Part shown: one piece after another, positions 9,442 through 44,275 of the stretch | Numbering within the stretch: position 1 is the stretch's first letter | How the letters are laid out: each line of letters opens with the position of its first letter | Origin: Patescibacteria group bacterium | GTDB lineage: Bacteria; Patescibacteriota; Patescibacteriia; Buchananbacterales; UBA6539 | NCBI GenBank assembly: GCA_041662625.1 | Contig: JBAZSB010000001.1 | Coordinates: forward strand, 118,467-182,466 | Direction: 5' to 3' | Length of the DNA stretch: 64,000 nucleotides | Notes under the pieces: generated by a model | What the model saw: only the letters and a program-made list of their open reading frames with translations | Told to the model about the DNA's origin: nothing | Database searches by the model: none | Position numbers and translations under genes: made by a program

Positions 9442-10677
9442 ATGCTTCAATCTAAACTTTTTGGTAAAACTTTAAAAGAACCGCCAAAAGACGAAGTCAG
9501 TATCAATGCGGTTATGCTTACCCGGGGCGGGTTTATTGATAAACTTACAGCCGGGGTTTATACTTATCTGCCGCTGGGTTTACGGGTTTTAAATAAAATT
9601 AAACAGATTGTTCGCGAAGAAATGAATGCCATCGATGGTCAAGAAATTTTAATGCCGGCTTTGCATCCTAAAGAAATCTGGGAAATCACCGGCCGCTGGA
9701 CTGATCCGGGTAAAGAGGTAATGTTTGAATTCAAGGGCAGAAGTAATAAAGAATATGGCTTAGGCTGGACCCACGAAGAAGTAATTACACCGCTAGTAAA
9801 AAAATTCGTTAATTCCTACAAAGATTTGCCAGTTTATCTTTACCAAATTCAGGATAAATTCCGAAACGAGCCGCGGGCCAAATCCGGGCTTTTGCGCGGC
9901 ATCGAATTTTCCATGAAAGATTTATACAGTTTTAATCGTAATGAAAAGGATTTAGAAGAATATTATCAGGAGGCCTTACAAGCTTATAGCAAAGTATTTA
10001 AGCGCTGCGGTTTGGACGCATTAGTAGTTGAAGCTTCAGGCGGCAGCTTTTCCAAATATTCTCATGAGTTTCAAGTTTTAACACCATATGGCGAAGACAC
10101 GATTTATTTTTGTGAAAAATGCCATTATGCCCAAAACAAAGATATCGCTACAGTGAAAGCTGGTGATCGATGCCCTAAGTGCGGGGGTGAAATTAAAGAA
10201 GGCAAAGCAATAGAAGTGAGCAATATTTTTCCTTTAAAAACAAAATATTCCGAGCCTTTTAAGCTGGAATATGTTGATGAAGATGGCAAGAAAAAACCAG
10301 TGATGATGGGTTGCTATGGCATTGGGCCAAGCCGGGTAATGGGCTCGGTGGTTGAAGTTTTTCACGACGAAAAAGGCATTATTTGGCCTGAAAGTATCGC
10401 GCCTTTTAAAGTCCACTTGTTGGTTTTGGGGACTGAAGGGGCGGTTGTCAAAAAAGCTAAAGAGGTGTACGATAAATTACTTAAAAGCGATGTTGAAGTC
10501 TTATTTGATGACCGGACTGAAATCAGCGCCGGTCAGAAATTTGCCGAGGCGGATTTGCTGGGTATCCCTTACCGTTTAGTGGTTTCGGGCAAAACTGGCG
10601 ACCAAATTGAAGTTAAAAAACGAAGTGAAACTAAAGCGGAAATAATGGCTTTAGATAAATTGATAAAAAAATTGTAA
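9442..10677 (+). CDS. proS: Prolyl-tRNA synthetase, short form lacking the INS editing domain
   Basis: Class II aaRS motifs, ProRS N-terminus (LTRGGFIDKL.GVYTYLPLG), Cys4 cluster; 411 aa. Confidence 0.85.
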   Translation: MLQSKLFGKTLKEPPKDEVSINAVMLTRGGFIDKLTAGVYTYLPLGLRVLNKIKQIVREEMNAIDGQEILMPALHPKEIWEITGRWTDPGKEVMFEFKGRSNKEYGLGWTHEEVITPLVKKFVNSYKDLPVYLYQIQDKFRNEPRAKSGLLRGIEFSMKDLYSFNRNEKDLEEYYQEALQAYSKVFKRCGLDALVVEASGGSFSKYSHEFQVLTPYGEDTIYFCEKCHYAQNKDIATVKAGDRCPKCGGEIKEGKAIEVSNIFPLKTKYSEPFKLEYVDEDGKKKPVMMGCYGIGPSRVMGSVVEVFHDEKGIIWPESIAPFKVHLLVLGTEGAVVKKAKEVYDKLLKSDVEVLFDDRTEISAGQKFAEADLLGIPYRLVVSGKTGDQIEVKKRSETKAEIMALDKLIKKL

Positions 10678-10701
10678 GTTTACCAGTTTGATTTTCTTAT
10701 T

Positions 10702-11760
10702 ATGTTCAACAAATTATTCAAAAAATTTTCCCGCGATGTTGGGATTGACCTAGGGACTTCTAATACCTTGATTTACGTTAAAGATCGAGGGATTGTGGTT
10801 AATGAGTCGTCAATTGTCGCCATCAATAATCGTAATGATCAGATTTTAGCGGTAGGTGAAGAGGCACAAAAGATGGTGGGCAAAACACCACCCCATATCA
10901 CAATTTCTAAACCTTTGGTTGATGGCATAATTTCTGATTTTGAAGTGACGGAAAAAATGCTTAAATATTTCATTGGCCGAATTTCTCGGGAAAGCTTTGG
11001 TCTTTCCCCACGGCCGCGAGTGGTAATTGGCGTACCTTTGGATGTGACGGAAGTGGAAAAAAAGGCCGTGGAAGACGTAGTCTTGTCTGCTGGCGCCCGG
11101 GAAGTTTATCTGGTGGAAAATGTAGTTGCTACAGCAATCGGCGCTAGGCTGCCAATTCAGGACCCGTCAGGCAGTATGGTCGTTGATCTGGGCGGTGGGG
11201 TTACTGAGATTGCCGTGATTTCTCTTTCTGGTGTTGTTGCCTGGAAATCACTGCGGACGGCGGGTAATAAATTGAATCAAGATATTATGCAGTTTGCCCG
11301 AAGTGAATTTAACTTATTGGTTGGTGAACGAGTTGCTGAAGATATTAAAATTAAAGCCGGTCGGGTAATGGACTCCGGTGAATCAGTTGAATTAAGGATG
11401 CGGGGGCGAGATTTAATGACTGGTTTGCCAAAAGAAGTTATTATTACCACCGACCAGGTTAGGCAAGCTCTCCAGCGATCAATTGCCACCATTATTGATG
11501 GCATTAAAAGCACATTAGAAATTACTCCGCCGGAACTAGTGGCTGACATTTACCAGCGAGGTATGGTTTTGGCCGGTGGGGGAGCAATGTTGGCTGGCTT
11601 AGATAAAATTATCGCTCAAACGACTAAAATACCGATTAAAGTTATAGAAGATGCCTTGACTTGCGCCGTTAGGGGCATGGGCTTGATTTTGGAAGATGAA
11701 AATTTGCTTAAAGAGGTCGCCGTGCCTTCGTCAACTCAAGAAGAAAAAAACTCTAGATAA
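10702..11760 (+). CDS. mreB: MreB paralogue (copy 2) heading the mreBCD-mrdA cluster
   Basis: VGIDLGTSNTLIYV; 352 aa. Confidence 0.85.
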   Translation: MFNKLFKKFSRDVGIDLGTSNTLIYVKDRGIVVNESSIVAINNRNDQILAVGEEAQKMVGKTPPHITISKPLVDGIISDFEVTEKMLKYFIGRISRESFGLSPRPRVVIGVPLDVTEVEKKAVEDVVLSAGAREVYLVENVVATAIGARLPIQDPSGSMVVDLGGGVTEIAVISLSGVVAWKSLRTAGNKLNQDIMQFARSEFNLLVGERVAEDIKIKAGRVMDSGESVELRMRGRDLMTGLPKEVIITTDQVRQALQRSIATIIDGIKSTLEITPPELVADIYQRGMVLAGGGAMLAGLDKIIAQTTKIPIKVIEDALTCAVRGMGLILEDENLLKEVAVPSSTQEEKNSR

Positions 11761-19106: not shown

Positions 19107-19131
19107 CCTAATTCCTAATTCCTAATTCCTA
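19107..19131 (+). repeat. (TAATTCC)x3.5 heptamer tandem repeat ending 4 nt before the serS start codon
   Basis: cctaattcctaattcctaattcctaagatATG; the same repeat precedes the GT2 start at 44185 and a CCTAATC variant precedes rpsK. Confidence 0.8.
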
Positions 19132-19135
19132 AGAT

Positions 19136-20383
19136 ATGCTAGACATTAATAAAATTCGTAACGAAAAAGAAGCAGTCAAAAAAGCGCTTTTGAAAAGAAT
19201 TAGCGAGGCTGATTTTGATTTGGATGCAATTATTAAAATTGATGATTCTAGGCGTCAATTATTGGCTGAGGTTGAAGCTTTGAAAGCTGAAAGGAATAAA
19301 TTTTCCAAGACTAAGCCCAGCCCCGATATTATCGCCAAAATGAAAGCAACTGGTGAAAAGATCAAAGAACTTGATGAACAAGTTAAGGCGACTGAAACCG
19401 AACTGACTGAACGGCTTTCTGCTTTGCCTAATATCCCGGCCGATGATGTTTTGCCTGGTGGTAAAGAAAATAACAAAGTGATCAAAACTTTTGGCAAAAA
19501 GCCCCAGTTTAAATTCGAACCCAAAGATCATTATGATTTGGCCACAAGTCTTGGAATTATTGATTATGAACGGGCGGTTAAAATGTCAGGCAATGGCTTT
19601 TGGATTTACAAGGGGGCCGGAGCAATTTTAGAATGGGCGATTTTAAGCTATTTTATTAAATTCCATCAGGAAAATAATTATACTTTTATGATCCCGCCGT
19701 TTTTGCTGACTGAGCAGTCTGCTTATACTTCTGGACATTTGCCCAAATTCCGTGATGATTTATTCTGGACCCAGGATAAGCAATGCTTGGATGCCACAGC
19801 CGAGATGATGCTAGGGAATTACCATCGCGATGAAATTTTAAACGAAGAGGAACTACCTTTGAAATACGCCGCTTACTCAGCCTGCTTTCGGCGCGAAGCC
19901 GGATCTTACCGCAAAGAAGAGCGGGGGATGATCCGCGGCCACCAGTTTAATAAAATTGAAATGTTCCATTATGCCAAGCCGGCCCAGTCTTGGGATTGTT
20001 TTGCCGAATTAGTGAGCAATGCCGAAAAATTAGTGGAGGGCTTGGGACTTCATTATCAATCAGTCCAGTTGGCAGCTGCTGATGCTTCCGCGGCGATGGC
20101 AAAAACCGTGGATGTTGAAGTCTGGCTGCCCAGTATGAATACTTATAAAGAGGTTAGTAGTGTGTCTAATGCTTTAGACTACCAGGCTAGGCGGGGTAAC
20201 GTTCGATTTAAAAACAAGGCAGGTGGTAAAAACGATTTTGTTCACACTTTGAATGCTTCGGGTTTAGCCACTAGCCGGCTTTTGCCGGCAATTCTGGAGC
20301 AGTTCCAGAATAAAGACGGCAGTGTTGAAGTGCCAAAGGTTTTACAGAAATTCTGTGGTTTTAAGAAAATTGAAAAGAAATAA
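19136..20383 (+). CDS. serS: Seryl-tRNA synthetase
   Basis: Coiled-coil N-arm + class II core; 415 aa. Confidence 0.9.
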   Translation: MLDINKIRNEKEAVKKALLKRISEADFDLDAIIKIDDSRRQLLAEVEALKAERNKFSKTKPSPDIIAKMKATGEKIKELDEQVKATETELTERLSALPNIPADDVLPGGKENNKVIKTFGKKPQFKFEPKDHYDLATSLGIIDYERAVKMSGNGFWIYKGAGAILEWAILSYFIKFHQENNYTFMIPPFLLTEQSAYTSGHLPKFRDDLFWTQDKQCLDATAEMMLGNYHRDEILNEEELPLKYAAYSACFRREAGSYRKEERGMIRGHQFNKIEMFHYAKPAQSWDCFAELVSNAEKLVEGLGLHYQSVQLAAADASAAMAKTVDVEVWLPSMNTYKEVSSVSNALDYQARRGNVRFKNKAGGKNDFVHTLNASGLATSRLLPAILEQFQNKDGSVEVPKVLQKFCGFKKIEKK

Positions 20384-20423
20384 GGCAAAGTAAAAACCAC
20401 CCGCGACTTTGACAATTGTCCTT
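20384..20423. repeat. Conserved 40-bp motif (copy 1): aaggcaaagtaaaaaccacccgcgactttgacaattgtcc; on the - strand it is the 3' flank of the small gene 20499-20705
   Basis: Second copy at 20852-20890 with compensatory change in stem caaagt/actttg vs caaagt/attttg. Confidence 0.55.
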
Positions 20424-20498
20424 TTGTTGCTTTGGACATTGCTTCCAGTCGTCTAGGTGGTTTTGGGGGGCGCGGTGCGGGCCGGGTCGGGATAGAGG

Positions 20499-20705
20499 TC
20501 AGAACCTCTCAATCCCGTCGGTCTGGACTCGGAAGAGTCCGTAACCGAAGGTCCCGATCGTGCCGGCGACCAACAGCAGCATGGCGCCGATGACGGGAAT
20601 CGTTCCCAGAGTGACCTCCGAGATCTTGTTCACCGTTTCGGTGCTGCCGGCGATGCCAGTAATGGTTGAAAGAACCAACGCTGCGAGAAACATGTACTTG
20701 ATCAT
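20499..20705 (-). CDS. Small hydrophobic membrane protein (68 aa) in a GC-rich islet
   Basis: SD aggagagag; TM core; TTGACA-17-TATCAT promoter upstream. Confidence 0.5.
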   Translation of the reverse strand: MIKYMFLAALVLSTITGIAGSTETVNKISEVTLGTIPVIGAMLLLVAGTIGTFGYGLFRVQTDGIERF

Positions 20706-20762
20706 GGTGACTCTCTCCTCTAGTTCTCTAGCATTTGCTAGATCCTCAGTTTGAATAATATA

Positions 20763-20791
20763 ATGATAACATATTTAAAGAAATTTGTCAA
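20763..20791 (-). promoter_or_regulatory. Sigma70-type promoter TTGACA-N17-TATCAT for the small gene at 20705
   Basis: -35 (rc of 20786-91) and -10 (rc of 20763-68); paralogous promoter at 21417-21445. Confidence 0.6.
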
Positions 20792-20851
20792 TAGTAAATT
20801 GATAAAAATAGCTAAATTTAGTCAAATTATAGTTTAAACAAATCGAAAATA

Positions 20852-20890
20852 AGGCAAAGTGAAAACCGCCTGCGATTTTGACAGTATCCC
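20852..20890. repeat. Conserved 40-bp motif (copy 2): aaggcaaagtgaaaaccgcctgcgattttgacagtatcc
   Basis: See 20384-20423. Confidence 0.55.
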
Positions 20891-20975
20891 GAAGGACTCT
20901 ATCAGAATCGAGGCGGTTCCTCGTGTGTTGGGTGGACTCGGACGCCGAGGCTTGGCGACTGGCGTCCTACGTCAG

Positions 20976-21122
20976 TTACTTCTGCTCAGCGTTTTGCCGA
21001 GCTTTTTCGTCGGCCGCTTCCATCAGACTGCCGACTCTGGTAAAGACTCCGCCTATCATGGCAATGATTGTCTCACCAGTCGTGGTTGCAGCCTTTGCCG
21101 GGTTACTACTCTGCTCACTCAT
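20976..21122 (-). CDS. Small protein (48 aa), second gene of a two-gene mini-operon
   Basis: SD ggaagga 6 nt upstream of ATG; 42 nt after the upstream small gene; GC-rich. Confidence 0.35.
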   Translation of the reverse strand: MSEQSSNPAKAATTTGETIIAMIGGVFTRVGSLMEAADEKARQNAEQK

Positions 21123-21164
21123 GGATTTCCTTCCGTTTTCAGGCTCGTGTGCCTGACTGCTTTG

Positions 21165-21350
21165 TCAGCTTCTGACTCGGCTGACCCTTACCACTACGAC
21201 ACATAGCAGCATCGCAGCGCCCCCGTATAGCAGCGCCGCAAAAACTGTCATTGATGTGGGCAGCGCCATACTGCCGGTTATGCCGCCGACAGCGATGCCG
21301 GCCAGCAACAGCACGATGGCGACTGCACCCAAAAAAAGGTTCAATTTCAT
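21165..21350 (-). CDS. Small hydrophobic membrane protein (61 aa), possible paralogue of the 20499-20705 product
   Basis: SD gagggacag; TM helices; TTGACA-17-TATCAT promoter. Confidence 0.5.
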   Translation of the reverse strand: MKLNLFLGAVAIVLLLAGIAVGGITGSMALPTSMTVFAALLYGGAAMLLCVVVVRVSRVRS

Positions 21351-21416
21351 CTGTCCCTCGCTTTCTTTTTCCTTCCGGTTTATATCACTCTTGTTACCAT
21401 TCCGAATTGATATATA

Positions 21417-21445
21417 ATGATACCATTTTTTAGATAAACTGTCAA
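21417..21445 (-). promoter_or_regulatory. Sigma70-type promoter TTGACA-N17-TATCAT (paralogue of 20763-20791)
   Basis: The roughly 70-bp upstream regions of both small genes are clearly homologous. Confidence 0.6.
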
Positions 21446-21488
21446 TGGAAATTTAGGAAAATAGCTAAAATAAGCAATAAATATTATC

Positions 21489-21565
21489 CAAATCTACGAA
21501 TTTATGCCAATCTACAAATTATAGGGATATTCGTAGATTCGGATAGATTTGTAGATTGGTATAAT
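21489..21565 (+). promoter_or_regulatory. Interleaved inverted repeats (aatctacgaat/attcgtagatt and aatctacaaat/atttgtagatt) plus TGGTATAAT box immediately upstream of alr; putative operator/promoter
   Basis: Two nested inverted-repeat pairs within 75 bp; extended -10 ends 3 nt before ATG. Confidence 0.4.
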
Positions 21566-21568
21566 GTT

Positions 21569-22738: not shown

Positions 22739-22740
22739 AA

Positions 22741-22800
22741 AAATTGGGCTCCCGGTCGGCACAGCAGTTTTTCCTGAACTCTTTGTGAGTTCGACTGTGT
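22741..22800 (-). terminator. Strong Rho-independent terminator for a minus-strand transcript (ggctcccggccgacacacag...ctgtgccgaccgggagcc + TTTTTT)
   Basis: About 19-bp GC stem followed on the - strand by aattttttt. Confidence 0.65.
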
Positions 22801-23435
22801 GTCGGCCGGGAGCCGTCCAATTAGGGCGATGCGCTCGCTCATCAGCGTCTTGCCAGCCTTGGGCTGACAACGCCGAAATACGGGCGTGCCCGAACACGGA
22901 GATGCGGCTTAGCCAGTCGCGGGCGATCCCGGGTTTAGGCCTGGGCGCCGTGCAATCAGCGGGGTTTAGTCCCCGCAGCACTATGTTGGCAAATGCCGCT
23001 CTCCTATCTTAGGAACACTACCTCGTAGTGGGCAAGGACCCGTAGGTCCTCGCGCAGTGTCCCTTGTCCGCGCGCCACCTCGCGCTAAACCCGCTCAGTT
23101 TGCCCGAAGGCCGACGCCGCTGAGATTGATTGCGCGACTGAACGGGTACTACCGATTGGTCAACCAGCCAAGGTCCCCAGCCTTGCGGTCGACCAGAAGA
23201 TCAATGACTTAACCAAGAAAGCCATATTCTCCCTTCCTGTTTGTCGGTTGCGACGCTACGGAGCGTCTGGTTAAAACCCAAAGTAGAAAGTCTTGGTTAC
23301 GAACTTTCTACCCGTGGAATCGGGCTCCATACACCGGCCCAAACGGTGCGGTAGCCCCCATACAACGGGAATTGACGCAACAACATCGTTCGCCCTCCAT
23401 GAGCGCCATAACTTCTGACGCTTGTTGAGGATGTG
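22741..23435 (-). ncRNA. About 700-nt GC-rich (about 58%) hairpin-dense RNA candidate of unknown class, bounded by a promoter and an intrinsic terminator
   Basis: No credible ORF (only terminator-spanning or overlapping ORFs); many hairpins with UUCG/UACG tetraloops (gcc-uucg-ggc, aggacc-uacg-ggucc); promoter at 23438-23466. Confidence 0.4.
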
Positions 23436-23437
23436 GA

Positions 23438-23466
23438 TACGTTAACATATATCTAAAAATTTGTCA
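23438..23466 (-). promoter_or_regulatory. Minus-strand promoter TTGACA-N17-TAACGT driving the GC-rich RNA locus
   Basis: TTGACA = rc of 23461-66; 17-nt spacer. Confidence 0.45.
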
Positions 23467-23483
23467 ATGATAATTGAATAAAT

Positions 23484-24641
23484 ATGTCTAAGATTAGCAA
23501 AAAAAATAAGATTAAGGTCGGTGTAATTTTTGGTGGTCGCTCAGGCGAGCACGAAGTTTCTATTGTTTCCGCTCAGTCCGTAATGAAAGCTTTGGATCGG
23601 AACAAATATGAGGTTATTCCGATTGGCGTGACTAAGGAAGGCAAATGGATTGCCGGGCCCCAGGCAGTGCAATTTCTAAAAGAAGGGTTGAAAAAATTGC
23701 CGTTCAAATCAGTTTTAACGCCTGACCCAACCGAAAAACATCTGGTCAAAGTCAAGGAAAAAGGTTTGGTGCCGCTCAAGTCTCAAGGGTCGTCAATCAC
23801 TAACCTTGACGTAGTGTTTCCGTTAATCCACGGGACTTATGGCGAAGACGGCAAGCTGCAAGGACTTTTGGAACTGGCCAACATTGCTTATATTGGGGCC
23901 GGCGTTTTAGGTTCAGCTTTAGGCATGGATAAAATTGTCCAGAAACAATTGTTTGCTGAGGTGGGGTTGGCCATAACTAAATATACTTGGTTTTTAAGTC
24001 AGGATTGGCCTAGGAAAAGAAAAAATATTTTAAGCCAGCTGGAAAAAGAACTGAAATACCCGATGTTTACCAAGCCGGCCAATACCGGTTCCAGTGTTGG
24101 TGTGGGTAAATGCCATAATCAGAAAGAATTAATTTTGGGCATTGGTGATGCTAGCCAATATGATCGCAAGGTGATTGTTGAGCAGGGGATTAATAACATT
24201 TCTGAGATTGAAGTGGCGGTTTTAGGTAATGATAATCCCAAAGCTTCAGTGCCCGGCGAAATTATTGCTAGTAATGAATTTTATGATTATGATGCCAAAT
24301 ATGTTGATGGCAAATCACAGGCAATAATTCCGGCTAAACTGCCCCAAGCAGTGGTTAAGAAAATTCAAAGAATGGCAGTTGAGGCTTTTAAAGTTTTAGA
24401 TTTATCCGGTATGGCCCGGGTTGATTTTTTGGTCACCAAAGGCCGCTATCAAATTTATCTGAATGAAGTCAACACTATTCCCGGCTTTACTTCAATTTCC
24501 ATGTATCCAAAGCTCTGGCAGGCTTCCGGTCTTTCGTATTCTGATTTGCTGGGTGAATTGATTAAATTGGCAATTGAGCGTTTTAAAGAAAAAAATAAGC
24601 TGAAAACTTCTTATCAGCCGAAGCAGGATTGGTATAAATAA
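23484..24641 (+). CDS. ddl: D-alanine--D-alanine ligase
   Basis: KVGVIFGGRSGEHEVS N-terminus, ATP-grasp; 385 aa. Confidence 0.9.
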   Translation: MSKISKKNKIKVGVIFGGRSGEHEVSIVSAQSVMKALDRNKYEVIPIGVTKEGKWIAGPQAVQFLKEGLKKLPFKSVLTPDPTEKHLVKVKEKGLVPLKSQGSSITNLDVVFPLIHGTYGEDGKLQGLLELANIAYIGAGVLGSALGMDKIVQKQLFAEVGLAITKYTWFLSQDWPRKRKNILSQLEKELKYPMFTKPANTGSSVGVGKCHNQKELILGIGDASQYDRKVIVEQGINNISEIEVAVLGNDNPKASVPGEIIASNEFYDYDAKYVDGKSQAIIPAKLPQAVVKKIQRMAVEAFKVLDLSGMARVDFLVTKGRYQIYLNEVNTIPGFTSISMYPKLWQASGLSYSDLLGELIKLAIERFKEKNKLKTSYQPKQDWYK

Positions 24642-24645
24642 TTTT

Positions 24646-25509
24646 GTGAAACGCAAACGAGATTACCAAAGAAAAAATTTTAGGAACCCTTTTTTTAATA
24701 AGAAGGGGAAAACACATAAACGCCGGCCTTGGCTGGTTTTAATTTTATTTTTAGTTATTTTTTTTATCAGCTCATACTTTCTAAATAATATTAGCCAATT
24801 ACAGATTAAAACGGTCCAAATTAAAGGTAATGAGCATATTAGTCAGCAGGAAATTGAAGGCTTGGTCTTTAAACAGGCCCATGAGAGGCGTCTTTTCTTT
24901 TTCAGCCAGAATAACCTGATTTTTTTTAGCAAACGCGAATTGAAGAAAAAATTGAACGAAAATTACTTTTTGGAGCAGCTGAAAATCCATAAAAAATATC
25001 CTGGTACTTTAATTATTGAAATTAAAGAGGAAATTTCATCTTTAATTTGGTCGAGTGGCGGTATCCAGTATTACTTGGATTTAAAAGGAGTGGCCTTAAG
25101 AAAAGCCACGACTGATGACTTGATTATTGAGCCTGGAGCCGGGGAGATGAAACTTATTAGACCGCAAGTCAGTTCTGGTCAATATCCATTGATTTATGAT
25201 CAAAGTAATACTCCTGTTACTATTGGTCAGCCAATTATTACCGAAATTTTAGTTAATTTTATTATTAATTTAACTGAGCAAGTTAAACAGAGAGCTGAGT
25301 TTATTTTGGCTCACTACCAAATTCCTGACCCCAGTTCAACGGAAATTACTTTAGTTACTAATGAAGGTTTGAAAATATATTTTAGATTAACTGATCCATT
25401 AGATCAACAACTGGAAACCTTATTTTCGGTTTTAAACACAGAAGTTAAAGATTGGCATAGATTAGAATATATTGATTTACGTTTTGGCGGAAAAGTTTTT
25501 TGGAAATAA
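24646..25509 (+). CDS. ftsQ: Cell-division protein FtsQ/DivIB-like (TM + POTRA)
   Basis: Basic N-terminus, one TM, POTRA-like region; classic ddl-ftsQ synteny. Confidence 0.55.
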   Translation: MKRKRDYQRKNFRNPFFNKKGKTHKRRPWLVLILFLVIFFISSYFLNNISQLQIKTVQIKGNEHISQQEIEGLVFKQAHERRLFFFSQNNLIFFSKRELKKKLNENYFLEQLKIHKKYPGTLIIEIKEEISSLIWSSGGIQYYLDLKGVALRKATTDDLIIEPGAGEMKLIRPQVSSGQYPLIYDQSNTPVTIGQPIITEILVNFIINLTEQVKQRAEFILAHYQIPDPSSTEITLVTNEGLKIYFRLTDPLDQQLETLFSVLNTEVKDWHRLEYIDLRFGGKVFWK

Positions 25510-25651
25510 TATAAATGCCTCCTCATTCCCACTAATTTTATTCCTAGTATCTATGCGTCGTAAAATATTTTAGAGTGGGGAAGTCATCTTTAGCGGGGAA
25601 GAGGCAATTAGTTTAACCAATTAAGATCAATTTGGACATCTAAGTACCCTT

Positions 25652-25726
25652 AAAGCCCTGAAAGTGCATTTTGTCATCCTGAACTTGATTTAGGATCTCA
25701 TCAGAATCGCACCTTCAGGGCTTTTA
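25652..25726 (+). terminator. Long hairpin (gccctgaaagtgc...gcaccttcagggc) + TTTT after ftsQ
   Basis: 12-bp stem with one mismatch, T-run. Confidence 0.45.
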
Positions 25727-25800
25727 GTAATTTTTGAATATAAATAGCTAAATATAAATAGCTATAGGTGGTTTATATGAGTTGCTAAATCTGCGCTATG

Positions 25801-25945
25801 TTAAGTGACTCATTGAGATACTCAAATGGTCTTATAATGAGTCGCTTAACCAGATTTTACGACACCGTGTCGGTGTCATAAAATCTGGTCACCTTAAGCG
25901 ACTCATAAGGACAACAAAATGGTCATACTATGAGTCGCTTAAGGT
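25801..25945. repeat. About 145-bp nested palindromic element: three consecutive hairpins (gactcat..atgagtc; 17-bp central ccagattttacgacaccg|cggtgtcataaaatctgg; gactcat..atgagtc) linked by gcttaa/ttaagc palindromes
   Basis: Direct reading of the sequence; capable of alternative cruciform or three-way pairing. Confidence 0.7.
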
Positions 25946-26057
25946 ATATTGTGCGACCCTAAACTATCCAACAAATAAGGCAAAATGACTCTCCCCTAGG
26001 AATAAGATGTAATAGATTGAGTTTATTTCCGTCTTAATTATATGGCGCCAAGATGAT

Positions 26058-26086
26058 TCTTTACTGGAAAAAGAATTTGACGGAAG
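26058..26086 (+). promoter_or_regulatory. Promoter TTGACG-N17-TAAGAT
   Basis: Hexamers with 17-nt spacer; drives the GC-rich 26.1-26.48 kb transcript. Confidence 0.5.
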
Positions 26087-26264
26087 AATCTTTTTGCCCT
26101 AAGATATGAAGTCGCCCTTTGAAACCACACCCATTGCCCTCCCCTAGCTGTTGGTGTTAGCCGCCGCTAGCTAAAGGAGGGCAATTGCGAGAATGTGACT
26201 TGCACGGCCAGTGTCGTCAGCTGGTTGTTAGCCTCTCCGATTCTAATCAATAAGCCCCAATCAT

Positions 26265-26438
26265 ATGATCAGGGCACTTTCGGGGGCGCTAACACTAGCT
26301 TTGGGCATTATCGTGCTAAAGCTTCTGTTACCTGAGATTGCTGTGGGTTTGATTGACCTTATCGTCAAAATCATCCACATCATCAATGTTGCAGTCGATC
26401 AGACTTCAGCTAATCTCAATATCCCCATCTCGCACTAA
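26265..26438 (+). CDS. Candidate small hydrophobic peptide (57 aa), no obvious SD
   Basis: ATG ORF MIRALSGALTLALGIIVLKLLLPEIAVGLIDL...; promoter upstream, terminator downstream. Confidence 0.3.
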   Translation: MIRALSGALTLALGIIVLKLLLPEIAVGLIDLIVKIIHIINVAVDQTSANLNIPISH

Positions 26439-26440
26439 TC

Positions 26441-26480
26441 AAAAAGGCTCAAGGATTTCTCCCTGAGCCTTTTGTCTTTA
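26441..26480 (+). terminator. Rho-independent terminator (ggctcaagg...cctgagcc + TTTTGTCTTT), also placed to terminate the convergent sdpI-like gene
   Basis: Stem + T-run. Confidence 0.55.
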
Positions 26481-26494
26481 TTGTTTTGTTTTCG

Positions 26495-27163
26495 CTAGAT
26501 ATTTTGATTTCTATTTTTTCGGTAAAGCAGATACGAATAAACCATTGGCACCAAAGAGACAATAGCGATGCCAGCGACAAAAAGCCACCAAAATATGGCT
26601 GGCGGTAGAATTGCCCCAAAAATCATAAATAAACCCATGATCATAAATAATTTACCGCCCAAGCGATGAGTTTTATTCCAAACTTCCTCGCTAGACAAAG
26701 TCCAGGGCGTGCGGATACCCATAAACCAGTTCGATTTAATTTTTCCCATGTAATTGCCTAAAACAACAAATAAAATGCCAATTGCTGGCGGGATGACCAT
26801 GGTTACCGGTAACTCATAGCCTAAACCGGCTAAGCCCACATAAAAATAGATTGCTGTCATTACTGCAACCATCAGGCCTTTAAAAACGTGATAGACTTTA
26901 GCAAACTCAGCATAGCGGTCTTTTTTTGGGTCAAGATAAGGAAAAACCAAAAACAGCAGATACATTCCTAAGTTTAAGCCGGGAAAGAAAAAAGCGGCAA
27001 AAGTTTTGCCTGACCAGCCGTCGATTTCCCCTTTGTAGTTCCAATGGGTTGGGACTTTATCAGGAAAATTGGCATAGAAATAGAAGCTGGCCAAAACACT
27101 TAAAATAATTAAAACAATTGGGATAATTTCGGTTTTAAAGGTTGGTTTGATTGGGTTAGCCAT
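26495..27163 (-). CDS. SdpI/YhfL-family membrane protein (DUF1648 + SdpI immunity/signalling domain)
   Basis: KSNWFMGIRTPWTLSSEEVWNKTH signature, 6 TM; paired with an ArsR repressor. Confidence 0.7.
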   Translation of the reverse strand: MANPIKPTFKTEIIPIVLIILSVLASFYFYANFPDKVPTHWNYKGEIDGWSGKTFAAFFFPGLNLGMYLLFLVFPYLDPKKDRYAEFAKVYHVFKGLMVAVMTAIYFYVGLAGLGYELPVTMVIPPAIGILFVVLGNYMGKIKSNWFMGIRTPWTLSSEEVWNKTHRLGGKLFMIMGLFMIFGAILPPAIFWWLFVAGIAIVSLVPMVYSYLLYRKNRNQNI

Positions 27164-27168
27164 ATTTT

Positions 27169-27438
27169 TTATTTAGATTTATTAAAAAAATTATAAATTT
27201 CTTCAGCAATTTCTTCAAAAACGCTCAAATTTAAAGAATAAATAATCTGTTGTCCCCTTCTTTGGGTGGAAACTAAATCGGCCCCTTTTAAGATAGTTAA
27301 ATGGTGGGAAAGCGATGGTAAGGTAATATCAAAATTTATGGCGATTTCATTAACCGGCAGATCCTTTTTTTTAAGCAATTGGAGAATTTTGCGGCGGGTC
27401 GGATCAGATAAGGCAAAAAATGTATTATTTAAAGTCAT
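27169..27438 (-). CDS. ArsR/SmtB-family HTH repressor (SdpR-like)
   Basis: LSDPTRRKILQLL...VNEIA...SLSHHL wHTH; 89 aa; 5 nt upstream of the sdpI-like gene. Confidence 0.8.
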   Translation of the reverse strand: MTLNNTFFALSDPTRRKILQLLKKKDLPVNEIAINFDITLPSLSHHLTILKGADLVSTQRRGQQIIYSLNLSVFEEIAEEIYNFFNKSK

Positions 27439-27482
27439 ATTCCCCTACTTTGTGATCCCTTGTAGCAATTGGGATAAGTTTA

Positions 27483-27507
27483 GATATTTAGACAACTATC
27501 TAAATAT
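27483..27507. promoter_or_regulatory. 12-1-12 inverted repeat ATATTTAGACAA|CTATCTAAATAT, putative ArsR/SdpR operator about 45 bp upstream of the repressor gene
   Basis: 10/12 symmetric positions. Confidence 0.5.
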
Positions 27508-27597
27508 TATCATAAAAAAATAGTCTGTCAAGACCTTATTTTTAAAAAATGTGGATATCTTATTTGTCTAAAATGGAATAATTAGTTAATATAATTA

Positions 27598-27830
27598 TGT
27601 GGACATCCCCCCCAGGATGCGAAACGTTAGGCCCCGCTAGGGTTCCCTCCGGGGAACCCCGGCGAAAACAAACTCGCACCTAGTGCGAACAGTGCGAGAG
27701 ATCCACATAGATCTTTGCCGGGCTTTGCGCCCAACAACCGCGGCTGCTACGGCGGCCAACGACCCTCCCCAGAGTGGACAGGTAGAGTAAGAGAGTTTTG
27801 CTCAGCCTGTCCCTCATTTTTTTTATTTTT
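27598..27830 (+). ncRNA. GC-rich (about 60%) small structured RNA candidate with its own terminator
   Basis: Hairpins gggttcc-ctcc-ggaaccc, ctcgcac...gtgcgag, closing tgtgga/tccaca; TATAAT at 27590; terminator ggacagg..cctgtcc + T8 at 27775-27826. Confidence 0.3.
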
Positions 27831-28230
27831 AGAGCTGGCCCCAATACATTATCTTTAAGTAAGATAAAACCAAAAAAACCGTCACTGCGGCCAAAACATC
27901 TTTTAGAGTGGGAACTTGTTTAAAGAAAAAAGGTAAAATTATAATCAGAACTGGGAGAAAATAAGTTAAAAGGTCATGTTTTAAGGCCTGGTACCAGTTT
28001 AATTCGATACTAATTTTAGAATCAGTTTTGTCTTTGGTTTTTTTGATTTGCTCCTGGTCGCGGCCAAAAACTAAAATCCCTCCAATTGTGAAGACAATTG
28101 TTGGGATAAGTGAAATTAGAATATCAACCAGTGATTTAGATTTATAGAGATAGTTAAAATAGACAATGGCAGTGGCAACAGTCAGAAACATGATGACAAT
28201 GCTGCTTATTTTTTGCTGTGAAATTTTCAT
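27829..28230 (-). CDS. Hypothetical membrane protein (133 aa)
   Basis: 4 predicted TM segments. Confidence 0.4.
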   Translation of the reverse strand: MKISQQKISSIVIMFLTVATAIVYFNYLYKSKSLVDILISLIPTIVFTIGGILVFGRDQEQIKKTKDKTDSKISIELNWYQALKHDLLTYFLPVLIIILPFFFKQVPTLKDVLAAVTVFLVLSYLKIMYWGQL

Positions 28231-43396: not shown

Positions 43397-44185
43397 TCAG
43401 TTTTTACCAAAACCATGTTTACTAAAATAATACCAGGCGCTTTTGAAAAAAGTTATTTGGTTTTTCCAGGGCACTTCTTTTTTGAAGCTTTGGCCGCCAT
43501 AATGGATGATTTCAGTTTCGGGATTATACCAAACTTGCCAGCCCGCCGATTTGGCGCGTTTACATAAGTCGACTTCCTCAAACCAAGTGAAGAAATTTTC
43601 ATCAAACATGCCAATTTCATCAATCAGTTGGCGCCGGATCATAAAAAAACTGCCCGCCACTTGATCAACCGGCTGGGCGATTTTGTAATCAAAATCTTTG
43701 GCTAAATAATTATAAACCGGCGGGATGTTTGGAATAATTTTGGCAATTTTGGTGAAGATAAAAAACAGGGCAAAAAAATTGGGAAAGCGCCGAACCGAAG
43801 GCTGCAAAGTCCAATCCGGGTTAAGATGCTTGCAGCCGGCAATGCCAATCTGGGGATTTCTTTTCATAAAGTCAACCATTTTTTGCAAAGCATCTTTAAT
43901 GATTTTAGTATCCGGATTTAAAGCCAAAATAAACTGGCCTTGGCTTTTCAAAATCCCCTGGTTGTTGGCTGTAGCAAAACCTAAATTATTGGAATTAGGA
44001 ATCAGTTTAACCTGGGTGAATTCTTTTTTTATCATTTCCACTGTCCCATCATTTGAGGCATTATCAGCAACAATTATTTCGAATTCCAATTTGCCCTGAT
44101 GCTTAAAAATAGACAGCAGGCATTCCTTCAGCAGTTTTTTGACATTCCAAGAAACAATGATGATGGATAGGTCGGTCGTGGACAT
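43397..44185 (-). CDS. Glycosyltransferase family 2
   Basis: IIVSWNVK...ADNASNDGT, NPDT; 262 aa. Confidence 0.85.
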   Translation of the reverse strand: MSTTDLSIIIVSWNVKKLLKECLLSIFKHQGKLEFEIIVADNASNDGTVEMIKKEFTQVKLIPNSNNLGFATANNQGILKSQGQFILALNPDTKIIKDALQKMVDFMKRNPQIGIAGCKHLNPDWTLQPSVRRFPNFFALFFIFTKIAKIIPNIPPVYNYLAKDFDYKIAQPVDQVAGSFFMIRRQLIDEIGMFDENFFTWFEEVDLCKRAKSAGWQVWYNPETEIIHYGGQSFKKEVPWKNQITFFKSAWYYFSKHGFGKN

Positions 44186-44187
44186 TT

Positions 44188-44275
44188 TAGGAATTAGGAA
44201 TTAGGAATTAGGAATTAGGGTTTTGATATGCTTCCCTAATTCATAATTCTTAATTTATGATTCTTGATTTTAATA
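44188..44275. repeat. (GGAATTA)x5 heptamer tandem array (= TAATTCC on the - strand) abutting the GT2 start codon, followed by degenerate taattc/tgattct units
   Basis: ggaattaggaattaggaattaggaattaggg at 44191-44220. Confidence 0.8.

Follow-up and report, generated by a model that had tools for sequence, protein, structure and literature searches.

The window analysed here is a stretch of 64,000 nucleotides (nt) from the genome of a Patescibacteria group bacterium. Its interval 26058-27510 carries an sdpR-sdpI gene pair on the minus strand and, facing it on the plus strand, a short gene for a small hydrophobic protein. We propose that two separately transcribed, independent units face each other in this interval and end at a shared bidirectional terminator, and we put the probability of this reading at about 70%. 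Unit A, the sdpR-sdpI (sdpRI) operon on the minus strand, is by its sequence a canonical, known and already annotated kind of module. Unit B, the small-gene unit on the plus strand, appears to begin with an undescribed structured leader RNA that is supported by covariation and absent from Rfam, and its mRNA is predicted to pair back onto its own early codons through a long-range helix around the start codon. An earlier note on this DNA had suggested that the small protein could be the toxin-like partner of SdpI; the comparison of related loci (given below by their L-numbers) does not support this pairing.

The small gene and its transcription unit

The features that delimit unit B are as follows.

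26077-26105, plus strand: sigma-70-like promoter, with the –35 element TTGACG at 26077-26082, the –10 element TAAGAT at 26100-26105 and a spacer of 17 nt
26265-26438, plus strand: small gene for a predicted membrane protein of 57 amino acids (aa), in GenBank the hypothetical protein WC675_00685
26442-26473, both strands: bidirectional intrinsic terminator, a hairpin with T-runs on either side, which would serve the small gene (plus) and sdpI (minus)

The 57-codon open reading frame (ORF) had been put forward in the earlier note as encoding a hydrophobic peptide, and the comparative evidence indicates that it is a genuine protein-coding gene, equipped with a promoter and a terminator of its own. 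Homologues with an open frame exist in 16 lineages. Across these, the entropies of the three codon positions are 1.04, 0.66 and 1.49 bits, with the third position highest, and synonymous pairwise differences number 1622 in the frame of the ORF versus 512 and 206 in the other two frames, an excess of three- to eightfold. The two other frames hold 92 and 33 stop codons. We have also considered that the transcript 26112-26480 could be non-coding and the ORF fortuitous. Such a reading would fit the surroundings, a strongly folded island whose transcript the earlier note had called GC-rich (52% locally versus 40% for the whole window), and it would fit an ATG without a preceding Shine-Dalgarno (SD) sequence. 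The codon evidence, however, excludes a purely non-coding RNA; the protein alignment is kept down to about 40% identity, the ORF contains no conserved RNA structure apart from one arm of the helix described below, and the absence of an SD sequence is the norm in this genome, where only 8 of the 51 sizeable genes of the window have SD-like sequence upstream. A fortuitous ORF is thus a reading to which we give almost no credence.

The encoded proteins form a previously undescribed, unannotated family of two-helix proteins, usually 53 aa in length, with the consensus M.KA.SGALTLAL.IIVLKLFLPEVA..LIEL..KVL.I.N...DQA...LP, in which Val17 and Pro23 are invariant. In the AlphaFold2 model (mean predicted local distance difference test score 80.6), residues 2-21 and 23-51 are helical, and the two predicted helices meet at the invariant Pro23 of an LPE(V/I)A motif; the protein is presumably located in the membrane. 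A word-indexed search returned one close homologue, and phmmer, run exhaustively over 1.84 billion cluster representatives, gave 12 matches, to which syntenic loci of genomes and metagenomes added further members. No relative was found among Pfam, NCBIfam, PHROG or PDB profiles, and a weak match to a calcineurin helix was discarded as spurious. The gene is limited to one subclade of Candidatus Buchananbacteria, where one copy occupies a constant syntenic position even in lineages whose peptides are only about 40% identical. In one locus (L017, around 9560-9720) the homologue is interrupted in frame by a TAA near codon 31, after which family-like sequence goes on in frame; this is either a pseudogene, an assembly error or a case of read-through.

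The promoter proposed for this gene, TTGACG-17-TAAGAT, is present, from which transcription would start near position 26112. As a sequence it is unremarkable: it matches the consensus at 9 of 12 positions, and the region holds no more such sites than shuffled sequences do. A comparable site is found in 13 of 16 related loci, with the –10 element ending 142-172 nt before the ATG. It is this retained position that makes the site credible, since the match by itself is weak. The terminator is better marked. T-runs accompany the hairpin on both strands, in agreement with the shared terminator described earlier, and all 16 homologous units have a hairpin and T-run after the stop codon, with a stem that covaries. 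Because each homologue combines a positioned promoter-like site with a terminator directly after its stop codon, we regard the unit as monocistronic.

A structured leader RNA and a helix around the start codon

Between the predicted transcription start and the ATG, and reaching into the ORF, we identified the following elements.

26112-26264, plus strand: structured 5′ leader, with a conserved single-stranded 5′ end (consensus CUGnUCUUUAAAA) followed by the hairpins P1, P2 and P3
26133-26185, plus strand: P1, about 16 pairs with a variable tip; 87.5% paired, 12 of 16 pairs changed on both sides
26186-26204, plus strand: P2, UGCGAG paired with CUUGCA around a 7-nt loop, AAUGUGA; 4 of 4 core pairs compensatory
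26205-26227, plus strand: P3, core CCAG paired with CUGG; 4 of 4 core pairs compensatory
26226-26240, plus strand: 5′ arm of P5, UGUUAGC-C-UCUCCGA, CU-rich and immediately after P3
26280-26294, plus strand: 3′ arm of P5, UCGGGGG-C-GCUAACA, codons 6-10 within the ORF

The three hairpins were derived from alignments of 17 leaders together with RNAalifold. In these alignments, 88.3% of the cells assigned to pairs can pair, compared with 74.1% in shuffles, and 20 of the 24 pairs are compensatory, compared with 10.2 in shuffles; neither value was reached by any of 500 shuffles. The covariation score is 0.544, whereas sliding the pairing partners gives at most 0.17. The loops are conserved as well: that of P3 contains an invariant U-GUC (the T, G, T and C columns of the alignment), and that of P2 is A-rich. 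A covariance model built for this element, R1, matches the window at 26112-26270 with 119 bits, detects the element once per locus, in each case with its end at the ATG, and recovers held-out loci with 82.6 (L100), 40.5 (L099) and 18.4 bits (L102). Conservation at the nucleotide level is high between the window and the close relative L002, where 26161-26400 is 97-100% identical and the neighbouring genes about 78-85%, and an nhmmer search located this element downstream of ddl-ftsQ in seven more genomes. No Rfam 15 family reaches its gathering score in the window or in 13 related loci, and relaxing the threshold to E-values of up to 10 over 25500-28000 yielded only microRNA and small RNA (sRNA) matches at chance level. 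ARAGORN predicted neither a tRNA nor a transfer-messenger RNA, and we found no literature on this leader. The pattern of covariation argues that P1-P3 form a structured RNA that has so far escaped description.

This fold bears on a further claim of the earlier note, which had seen a strong SD sequence followed by a start-stop mini-ORF in the 5′ untranslated region. The sequence in question, aaaggagggcaattgcgagaATGTGA, is located at 26173-26198 and contains the SD-like tract plus ATGTGA. Its GGAGGG tract is the 3′ arm of P1 (AAAGGAGGGCAA) and covaries with the 5′ arm, for example as GGAGGAC with GTCCTTCC or as GTGAGGC with GCCTCAC. The ATGTGA (26193-26198) sits in the loop of P2, where relatives show AAATAA, AAAGAC, AAAAAG and others, so that the combination of SD-like sequence and ATGTGA is confined to the window and its closest relative. 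A ribosome-binding site with a mini-ORF is not what these data describe, and the SD-like sequences are sparse upstream of the genes of this window in any case. Neither the frame nor the sequence of the mini-ORF is conserved, and the same holds for an overlapping 46-aa ORF with a GTG start; both were rejected. A more general caution follows: an SD-like GGAGG ahead of an ATG in a GC-rich island may be the arm of a helix and not a ribosome site.

The helix P5 joins the leader to the coding region. It encloses 26241-26279, a 39-nt AU-rich loop that contains the ATG and codons 1-5, and is found in the minimum-energy fold of the window itself, where the duplex of the two arms has an energy of –21.3 kcal/mol versus –10.7 kcal/mol for shuffles. 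We tested this helix by duplex energies, by a permutation of cognate against swapped arms and by a test of hand-specified columns. Among 21 homologues, the arm duplex exceeds shuffles of matched composition in stability (mean z –2.2), and in 16 of the 21 z lies below –1.65, taken as approximately the one-sided 5% level. Cognate arms pair with –15.9 kcal/mol, swapped arms with –11.5 kcal/mol, and none of 5000 permutations was as good as the cognate arrangement. With columns fixed, 8 of 11 pairs are compensatory, and covariation scores roughly twice as high as in the controls made by shuffling or sliding. The compensations follow amino-acid changes: GUUAG:CUAAC, which encodes Leu-Thr, is replaced by CCAAAU:AUUUGG, which encodes Phe-Gly, in L096, and CUCC:GGAG becomes AACC:GGUU in L100. 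RNAalifold predicted nothing around the ATG on the MAFFT alignment, a null result that we attribute to insertions and deletions that put the arms out of register. The arms of P5 co-evolve as those of a real leader-to-coding helix. In partition-function folds of 17 sequences, no other part of the transcript is as accessible as the start region, where the probabilities of being unpaired are 0.54 and 0.43 versus 0.21-0.31 in the flanks. A hairpin directly at the ATG (P4) was rejected, being predicted in some lineages only and overall no better than shuffles (mean z –0.47), as was a long hairpin inside the ORF in the minimum-energy fold of the window, which is not conserved.

Long-range interactions between the 5′ region and the coding sequence are typical of the hok, tisB and aapA1 mRNAs, and unit B could by analogy be a type I toxin-antitoxin-like locus, in which the mRNA of a membrane toxin is locked by such pairing and controlled by an antisense or trans-acting sRNA. 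A small hydrophobic ORF on a highly structured, conserved mRNA (fold z –8.96) and the helix P5 would both suit this interpretation. The start region, however, is the most open part of the RNA and not sequestered, and the 16 loci share no positionally conserved antisense promoter between –230 and +260 of the ATG. The neighbouring sRNA-like unit described below is no more complementary to the small-gene mRNA than expected by chance (13 of 25 shuffles did as well), and the gene's single copy in one syntenic slot, with peptides diverged to about 40% identity, also speaks against it. A distant trans-acting sRNA for this mRNA is possible; a type I system as such strikes us as very improbable.

A second alternative is a leader that acts as a genuine sensor, either a riboswitch or an operator RNA bound by a protein, and switches between two folds instead of providing a constitutive frame. 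Codons 6-10 and the purine-rich stretch in the 3′ arm of P1 would then compete for the CU-rich 5′ arm of P5. Invariant nucleotides in the loops (U-GUC in P3, the A-rich loop of P2) and the conserved single-stranded 5′ end would be expected of a sensor, and the CU-rich arm pairs with the P1 3′ arm better than shuffles do in 16 of 19 cases (mean z –1.4). Yet this alternative pairing is weak, at –11 to –19 kcal/mol versus –20 to –26 kcal/mol for P1, and statistically unconvincing, so that it is only suggestive. The leader lacks a junction-rich, aptamer-like core, and with a single gene under its control there is no regulon that would point to a ligand. We consider a switching leader unlikely, albeit worth keeping in mind, and favour P1-P3 and P5 as a constitutive frame.

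The sdpRI operon, its operator and its relation to the small gene

Unit A comprises the following features.

26495-27163, minus strand: sdpI, SdpI-family membrane protein of 222 aa with DUF1648 and SdpI domains
27169-27438, minus strand: sdpR, ArsR-type winged-helix protein of the SdpR family, 89 aa
27479-27509, minus strand: predicted SdpR-type operator, TAATATTTAGATAGTTGTCTAAATATCTAAA on the minus strand, which overlaps the –10 element and the transcript start
27504-27531, minus strand: sdpRI promoter, TTGACA-16-TAATAT with an extended –10 TG, 10 of 12 positions matching

The earlier assignment of an sdpR-sdpI-like pair is confirmed by hidden Markov model searches, in which all profiles score above their curated cut-offs. 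The sdpI product scores 82.6 bits against Pfam SdpI (PF13630; cut-off 28.2), covering the full profile from 1 to 71 of 71, and 62.2 bits against DUF1648 (cut-off 28.7), both far above the gathering scores. The sdpR product scores 108.7 bits against NCBIfam NF033789 ("autorepressor SdpR family"; cut-off 100) and matches Pfam HTH_5 at 2e-12. Two conserved motifs have been defined for the SdpI family, motif 1 between transmembrane segments (TMSs) 1 and 2 and motif 2 between TMSs 4 and 5 of a standard six-TMS topology (Povolotsky et al. 2010, PMC2910880). The window protein, which carries SNWFMGIRTPWTLSSEEVW, matches motif 2 (…GNY..K…GIRTPWTLS.EEVW.KTHR…) at 45 of 50 positions (residues 128-177). 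Its agreement with motif 1 is looser (14 of 29 positions; core P-D-K-V-P-T-H-W-N…G-E-I-D-G); a simple hydropathy scan gives five clear peaks. An identical protein from a genome of Candidatus Buchananbacteria, a member of the Candidate Phyla Radiation (CPR), has already been named "SdpI family protein" by NCBI, as have many of the more than 3400 homologues found at E < 1e-10. We found no literature on SdpI in Patescibacteria.

The two genes lie 5 nt apart, with sdpR upstream, in one operon. Their promoter is the best promoter match of the region, and its –35 and –10 elements are conserved in relatives. Inside the –10 element begins a 31-nt palindromic element, which would be the operator of SdpR. 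The earlier note had described this inverted repeat as 12-1-12. Its role as operator is borne out by conservation at sdpR promoters and by the overlap with the –10 element, while the geometry has to be corrected; all the other features quoted there lie at the coordinates given. The perfect part of the repeat is 9-6-9 (ATATTTAGA / TCTAAATAT), and a third half-site (TTTAGATA) begins at 27479. The 24 bases originally quoted (27484-27507) consist of two directly adjoining 12-mers with 10 of 12 positions in agreement. The element hardly varies among seven sdpR upstream regions, although their flanks have diverged, and it recurs at the sdpR promoters of a more distant member of the Buchananbacteria (L100), of Falkowbacteria (L103) and of Magasanikbacteria (L106), overlapping the –10 element in every sdpR promoter examined. 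The window contains a single exact copy; further copies are absent, with only chance-level matches at three mismatches. On the basis of this near-invariance amid diverged flanks, of the recurrence at distant sdpR promoters and of the single occurrence in the window, we read the palindrome as the SdpR operator. The consensus that we derived across the CPR is TAATATTTAGATA-N4-TCTAAATATCTAA, for which we found no published description.

In the model of the earlier note, SdpI would sense and neutralise the small hydrophobic protein as its cognate membrane-active toxin or signal, in an arrangement like that of the convergent sdpABC and sdpRI operons of B. subtilis. The convergent layout with a shared terminator recalls that system (PMC2910880), the protein is small and hydrophobic, and the small gene adjoins sdpI in 10 of the 16 lineages with enough flanking sequence to be informative: the window, L002, L004, L005, L007 (which lacks sdpR), L090, L092, L093, L094 and L100. 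All of these adjacent cases, however, come from one syntenic clade, which makes the adjacency approximately one observation and not independent evidence. The slot between the two genes tolerates gain and loss of genes: in L002, a gene for a 261-aa flavodoxin_2/FMN-reductase protein (FMN, flavin mononucleotide; 10300-11085), absent from the window, lies between small gene and sdpI. Other genes take the place of sdpI beside the small gene in L008, L009, L017, L088/L089, L098 and L101. Conversely, the sdpRI pairs of Falkowbacteria and Magasanikbacteria are found in unrelated contexts with no member of the small-gene family within 5 kb, and the more than 3400 SdpI homologues face only 12 clusters of small proteins. 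The small-gene promoter has no SdpR operator. The 57-aa protein and 20 relatives match no Pfam family and show no similarity to SdpC, and neighbours resembling sdpA or sdpB are absent. Since each partner occurs without the other and the operator is missing from the small-gene promoter, the cognate-toxin proposal of the earlier note finds no support here, and we regard it as decidedly unlikely.

Some observations weigh against two independent units with a shared RNA architecture in unit B. The small gene does adjoin sdpI in the majority of informative lineages, as listed above, all of one syntenic clade, so that a functional link is conceivable, and genomes without sdpI at this locus could carry it elsewhere. 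The leader is diverged or unrecognisable in the most distant family members, L098 and L101. P5 is only 70.6% paired on the unfitted MAFFT alignment, owing to bulges that shift among lineages. We nevertheless prefer the reading of two independent, converging units.

Genomic setting, proposed mechanism and implications

Upstream of the interval, the plus strand carries serS, alr, ddl and ftsQ in this order; past it, the minus strand carries the genes for a 133-aa membrane protein and an M23 peptidase, and gltX. A search with the Ddl protein of the window identified metagenome-assembled genomes of Candidatus Buchananbacteria and other Patescibacteria as the closest genomes. Outside these CPR relatives, the nearest Ddl proteins (ddl, 23484-24641) belong to Ignavibacteriota, Bacteroidota and Chlorobi (about 55-62% identity) and not to other Patescibacteria, which hints at an old lateral transfer of ddl. 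The spacer between alr and ddl (22739-23483, 745 nt) reaches a GC content of 69% in a genome of 40% GC, is strongly folded (z –5.2 over 22745-23300) and contains no ORF of at least 100 aa and no Rfam match; in L100, alr and ddl are just 4 nt apart. The spacer between serS and alr (20384-21568, 1.2 kb, GC 0.60-0.64) resembles it. Directly upstream of serS, which starts at 19136, the heptamer AATTCCT is repeated three times in tandem (AATTCCTAATTCCTAATTCCTAA; about 19111-19135), and the same triple heptamer is found at about 44186-44210 on the minus strand, directly upstream of the minus-strand gene 43397-44185.

Within the poorly conserved spacer between ftsQ and the small gene, 25800-25945 holds two 49-nt direct repeats, 78% identical and each a hairpin (TTAAG(T/C)GACTCAT…ATGAGTCGCTTAA), that flank a third hairpin at 25849-25889. 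L002 has only one copy of the repeat, which could represent a short repeat element or a further RNA. Divergent from the sdpR promoter lies a second GC-rich island on the plus strand (27596-27830, about 60% GC) with several hairpins and a fold z of –6.35. It is preceded by a promoter-like TTGTCT-17-TAATAT at 27564-27592, has a terminator hairpin with T8 at about 27772-27825, gives no Rfam match and has the appearance of a separate sRNA gene, about 225 nt long. Two tandem copies of this island, each with promoter and terminator, are present in L002 (12183-12421 and 12501-12740), and it is absent from L004, L005 and the other loci.

For unit A, homology with B. subtilis suggests that SdpR would bind the operator over the –10 element and thereby shut off its own promoter, and that SdpI, on sensing a membrane-active signal, would sequester SdpR and so derepress the operon. 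The likeness to the sdpRI operon of B. subtilis (Ellermeier et al. 2006; reviewed in PMC2910880) extends to the order of the genes, with the repressor gene first and the membrane-protein gene second, to membership in the SdpR family and an SdpI domain with family motif 2 and a looser match to motif 1, to the predicted autoregulated promoter with its operator over the –10 element, and to the convergence with a unit that encodes a hydrophobic peptide. The differences are that homologues of sdpABC are lacking, that the peptide is unrelated to SdpC and inconsistently linked, and that the host is a CPR bacterium of about 0.9 Mb and not a sporulating Firmicute. A closer parallel is provided by orphan pairs of the SdpR/SdpI families, which occur widely among bacteria (Povolotsky et al. 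2010, PMC2910880). They, too, consist of just two genes, that of an ArsR/SdpR-type regulator followed by that of an SdpI homologue, with no toxin genes present, and the module of the window does not differ from them in substance.

In unit B, the order would be promoter, a leader of about 150 nt with P1-P3, P5, the 57-codon ORF and the terminator. Pairing of P5 would leave the AU-rich start region, about –24 to +15, in the 39-nt loop; no other stretch of this GC-rich, folded RNA would then be open. As translation in this genome is largely initiated without SD sequences, we infer that the P1-P3/P5 fold defines or gates the access of ribosomes to the SD-less start; it probably also stabilises the mRNA. 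The conserved loops of P2 (A-rich) and P3 (U-GUC) may contact a factor.

Structured leaders that control initiation include those of ribosomal-protein genes, translational riboswitches and the long-range 5′-to-coding pairings of hok and tisB. The leader described here resembles them as a conserved multi-hairpin 5′ untranslated region tied to one gene, and in a helix between leader and early codons that is predicted to set the state of the start region. It differs in that the start codon would be displayed in a loop and not buried, with no SD sequence involved, and in that it has no Rfam family and is restricted to one CPR subclade. A bolder interpretation would see in P1-P3 and the P5 clamp a novel type of RNA that controls translation where the CPR initiates it without SD sequences, and which would sense a metabolite, an ion or a protein through the loops of P2 and P3 and open or close the start loop, with the small protein acting in the envelope near alr-ddl-ftsQ and possibly serving as an endogenous signal read by SdpI. 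We offer this as speculation with rather poor odds.

The operator consensus, shared by three CPR classes, provides a testable DNA target for SdpR-family repressors in unculturable organisms. The more useful result is the RNA: to our knowledge, few cis-regulatory RNAs are known in the Candidate Phyla Radiation, and the covariation-supported leader, absent from Rfam and coupled to a small, presumably membrane-bound protein after alr-ddl-ftsQ, would be a compact system for studying how a genome largely without Shine-Dalgarno sequences defines or gates its start sites.

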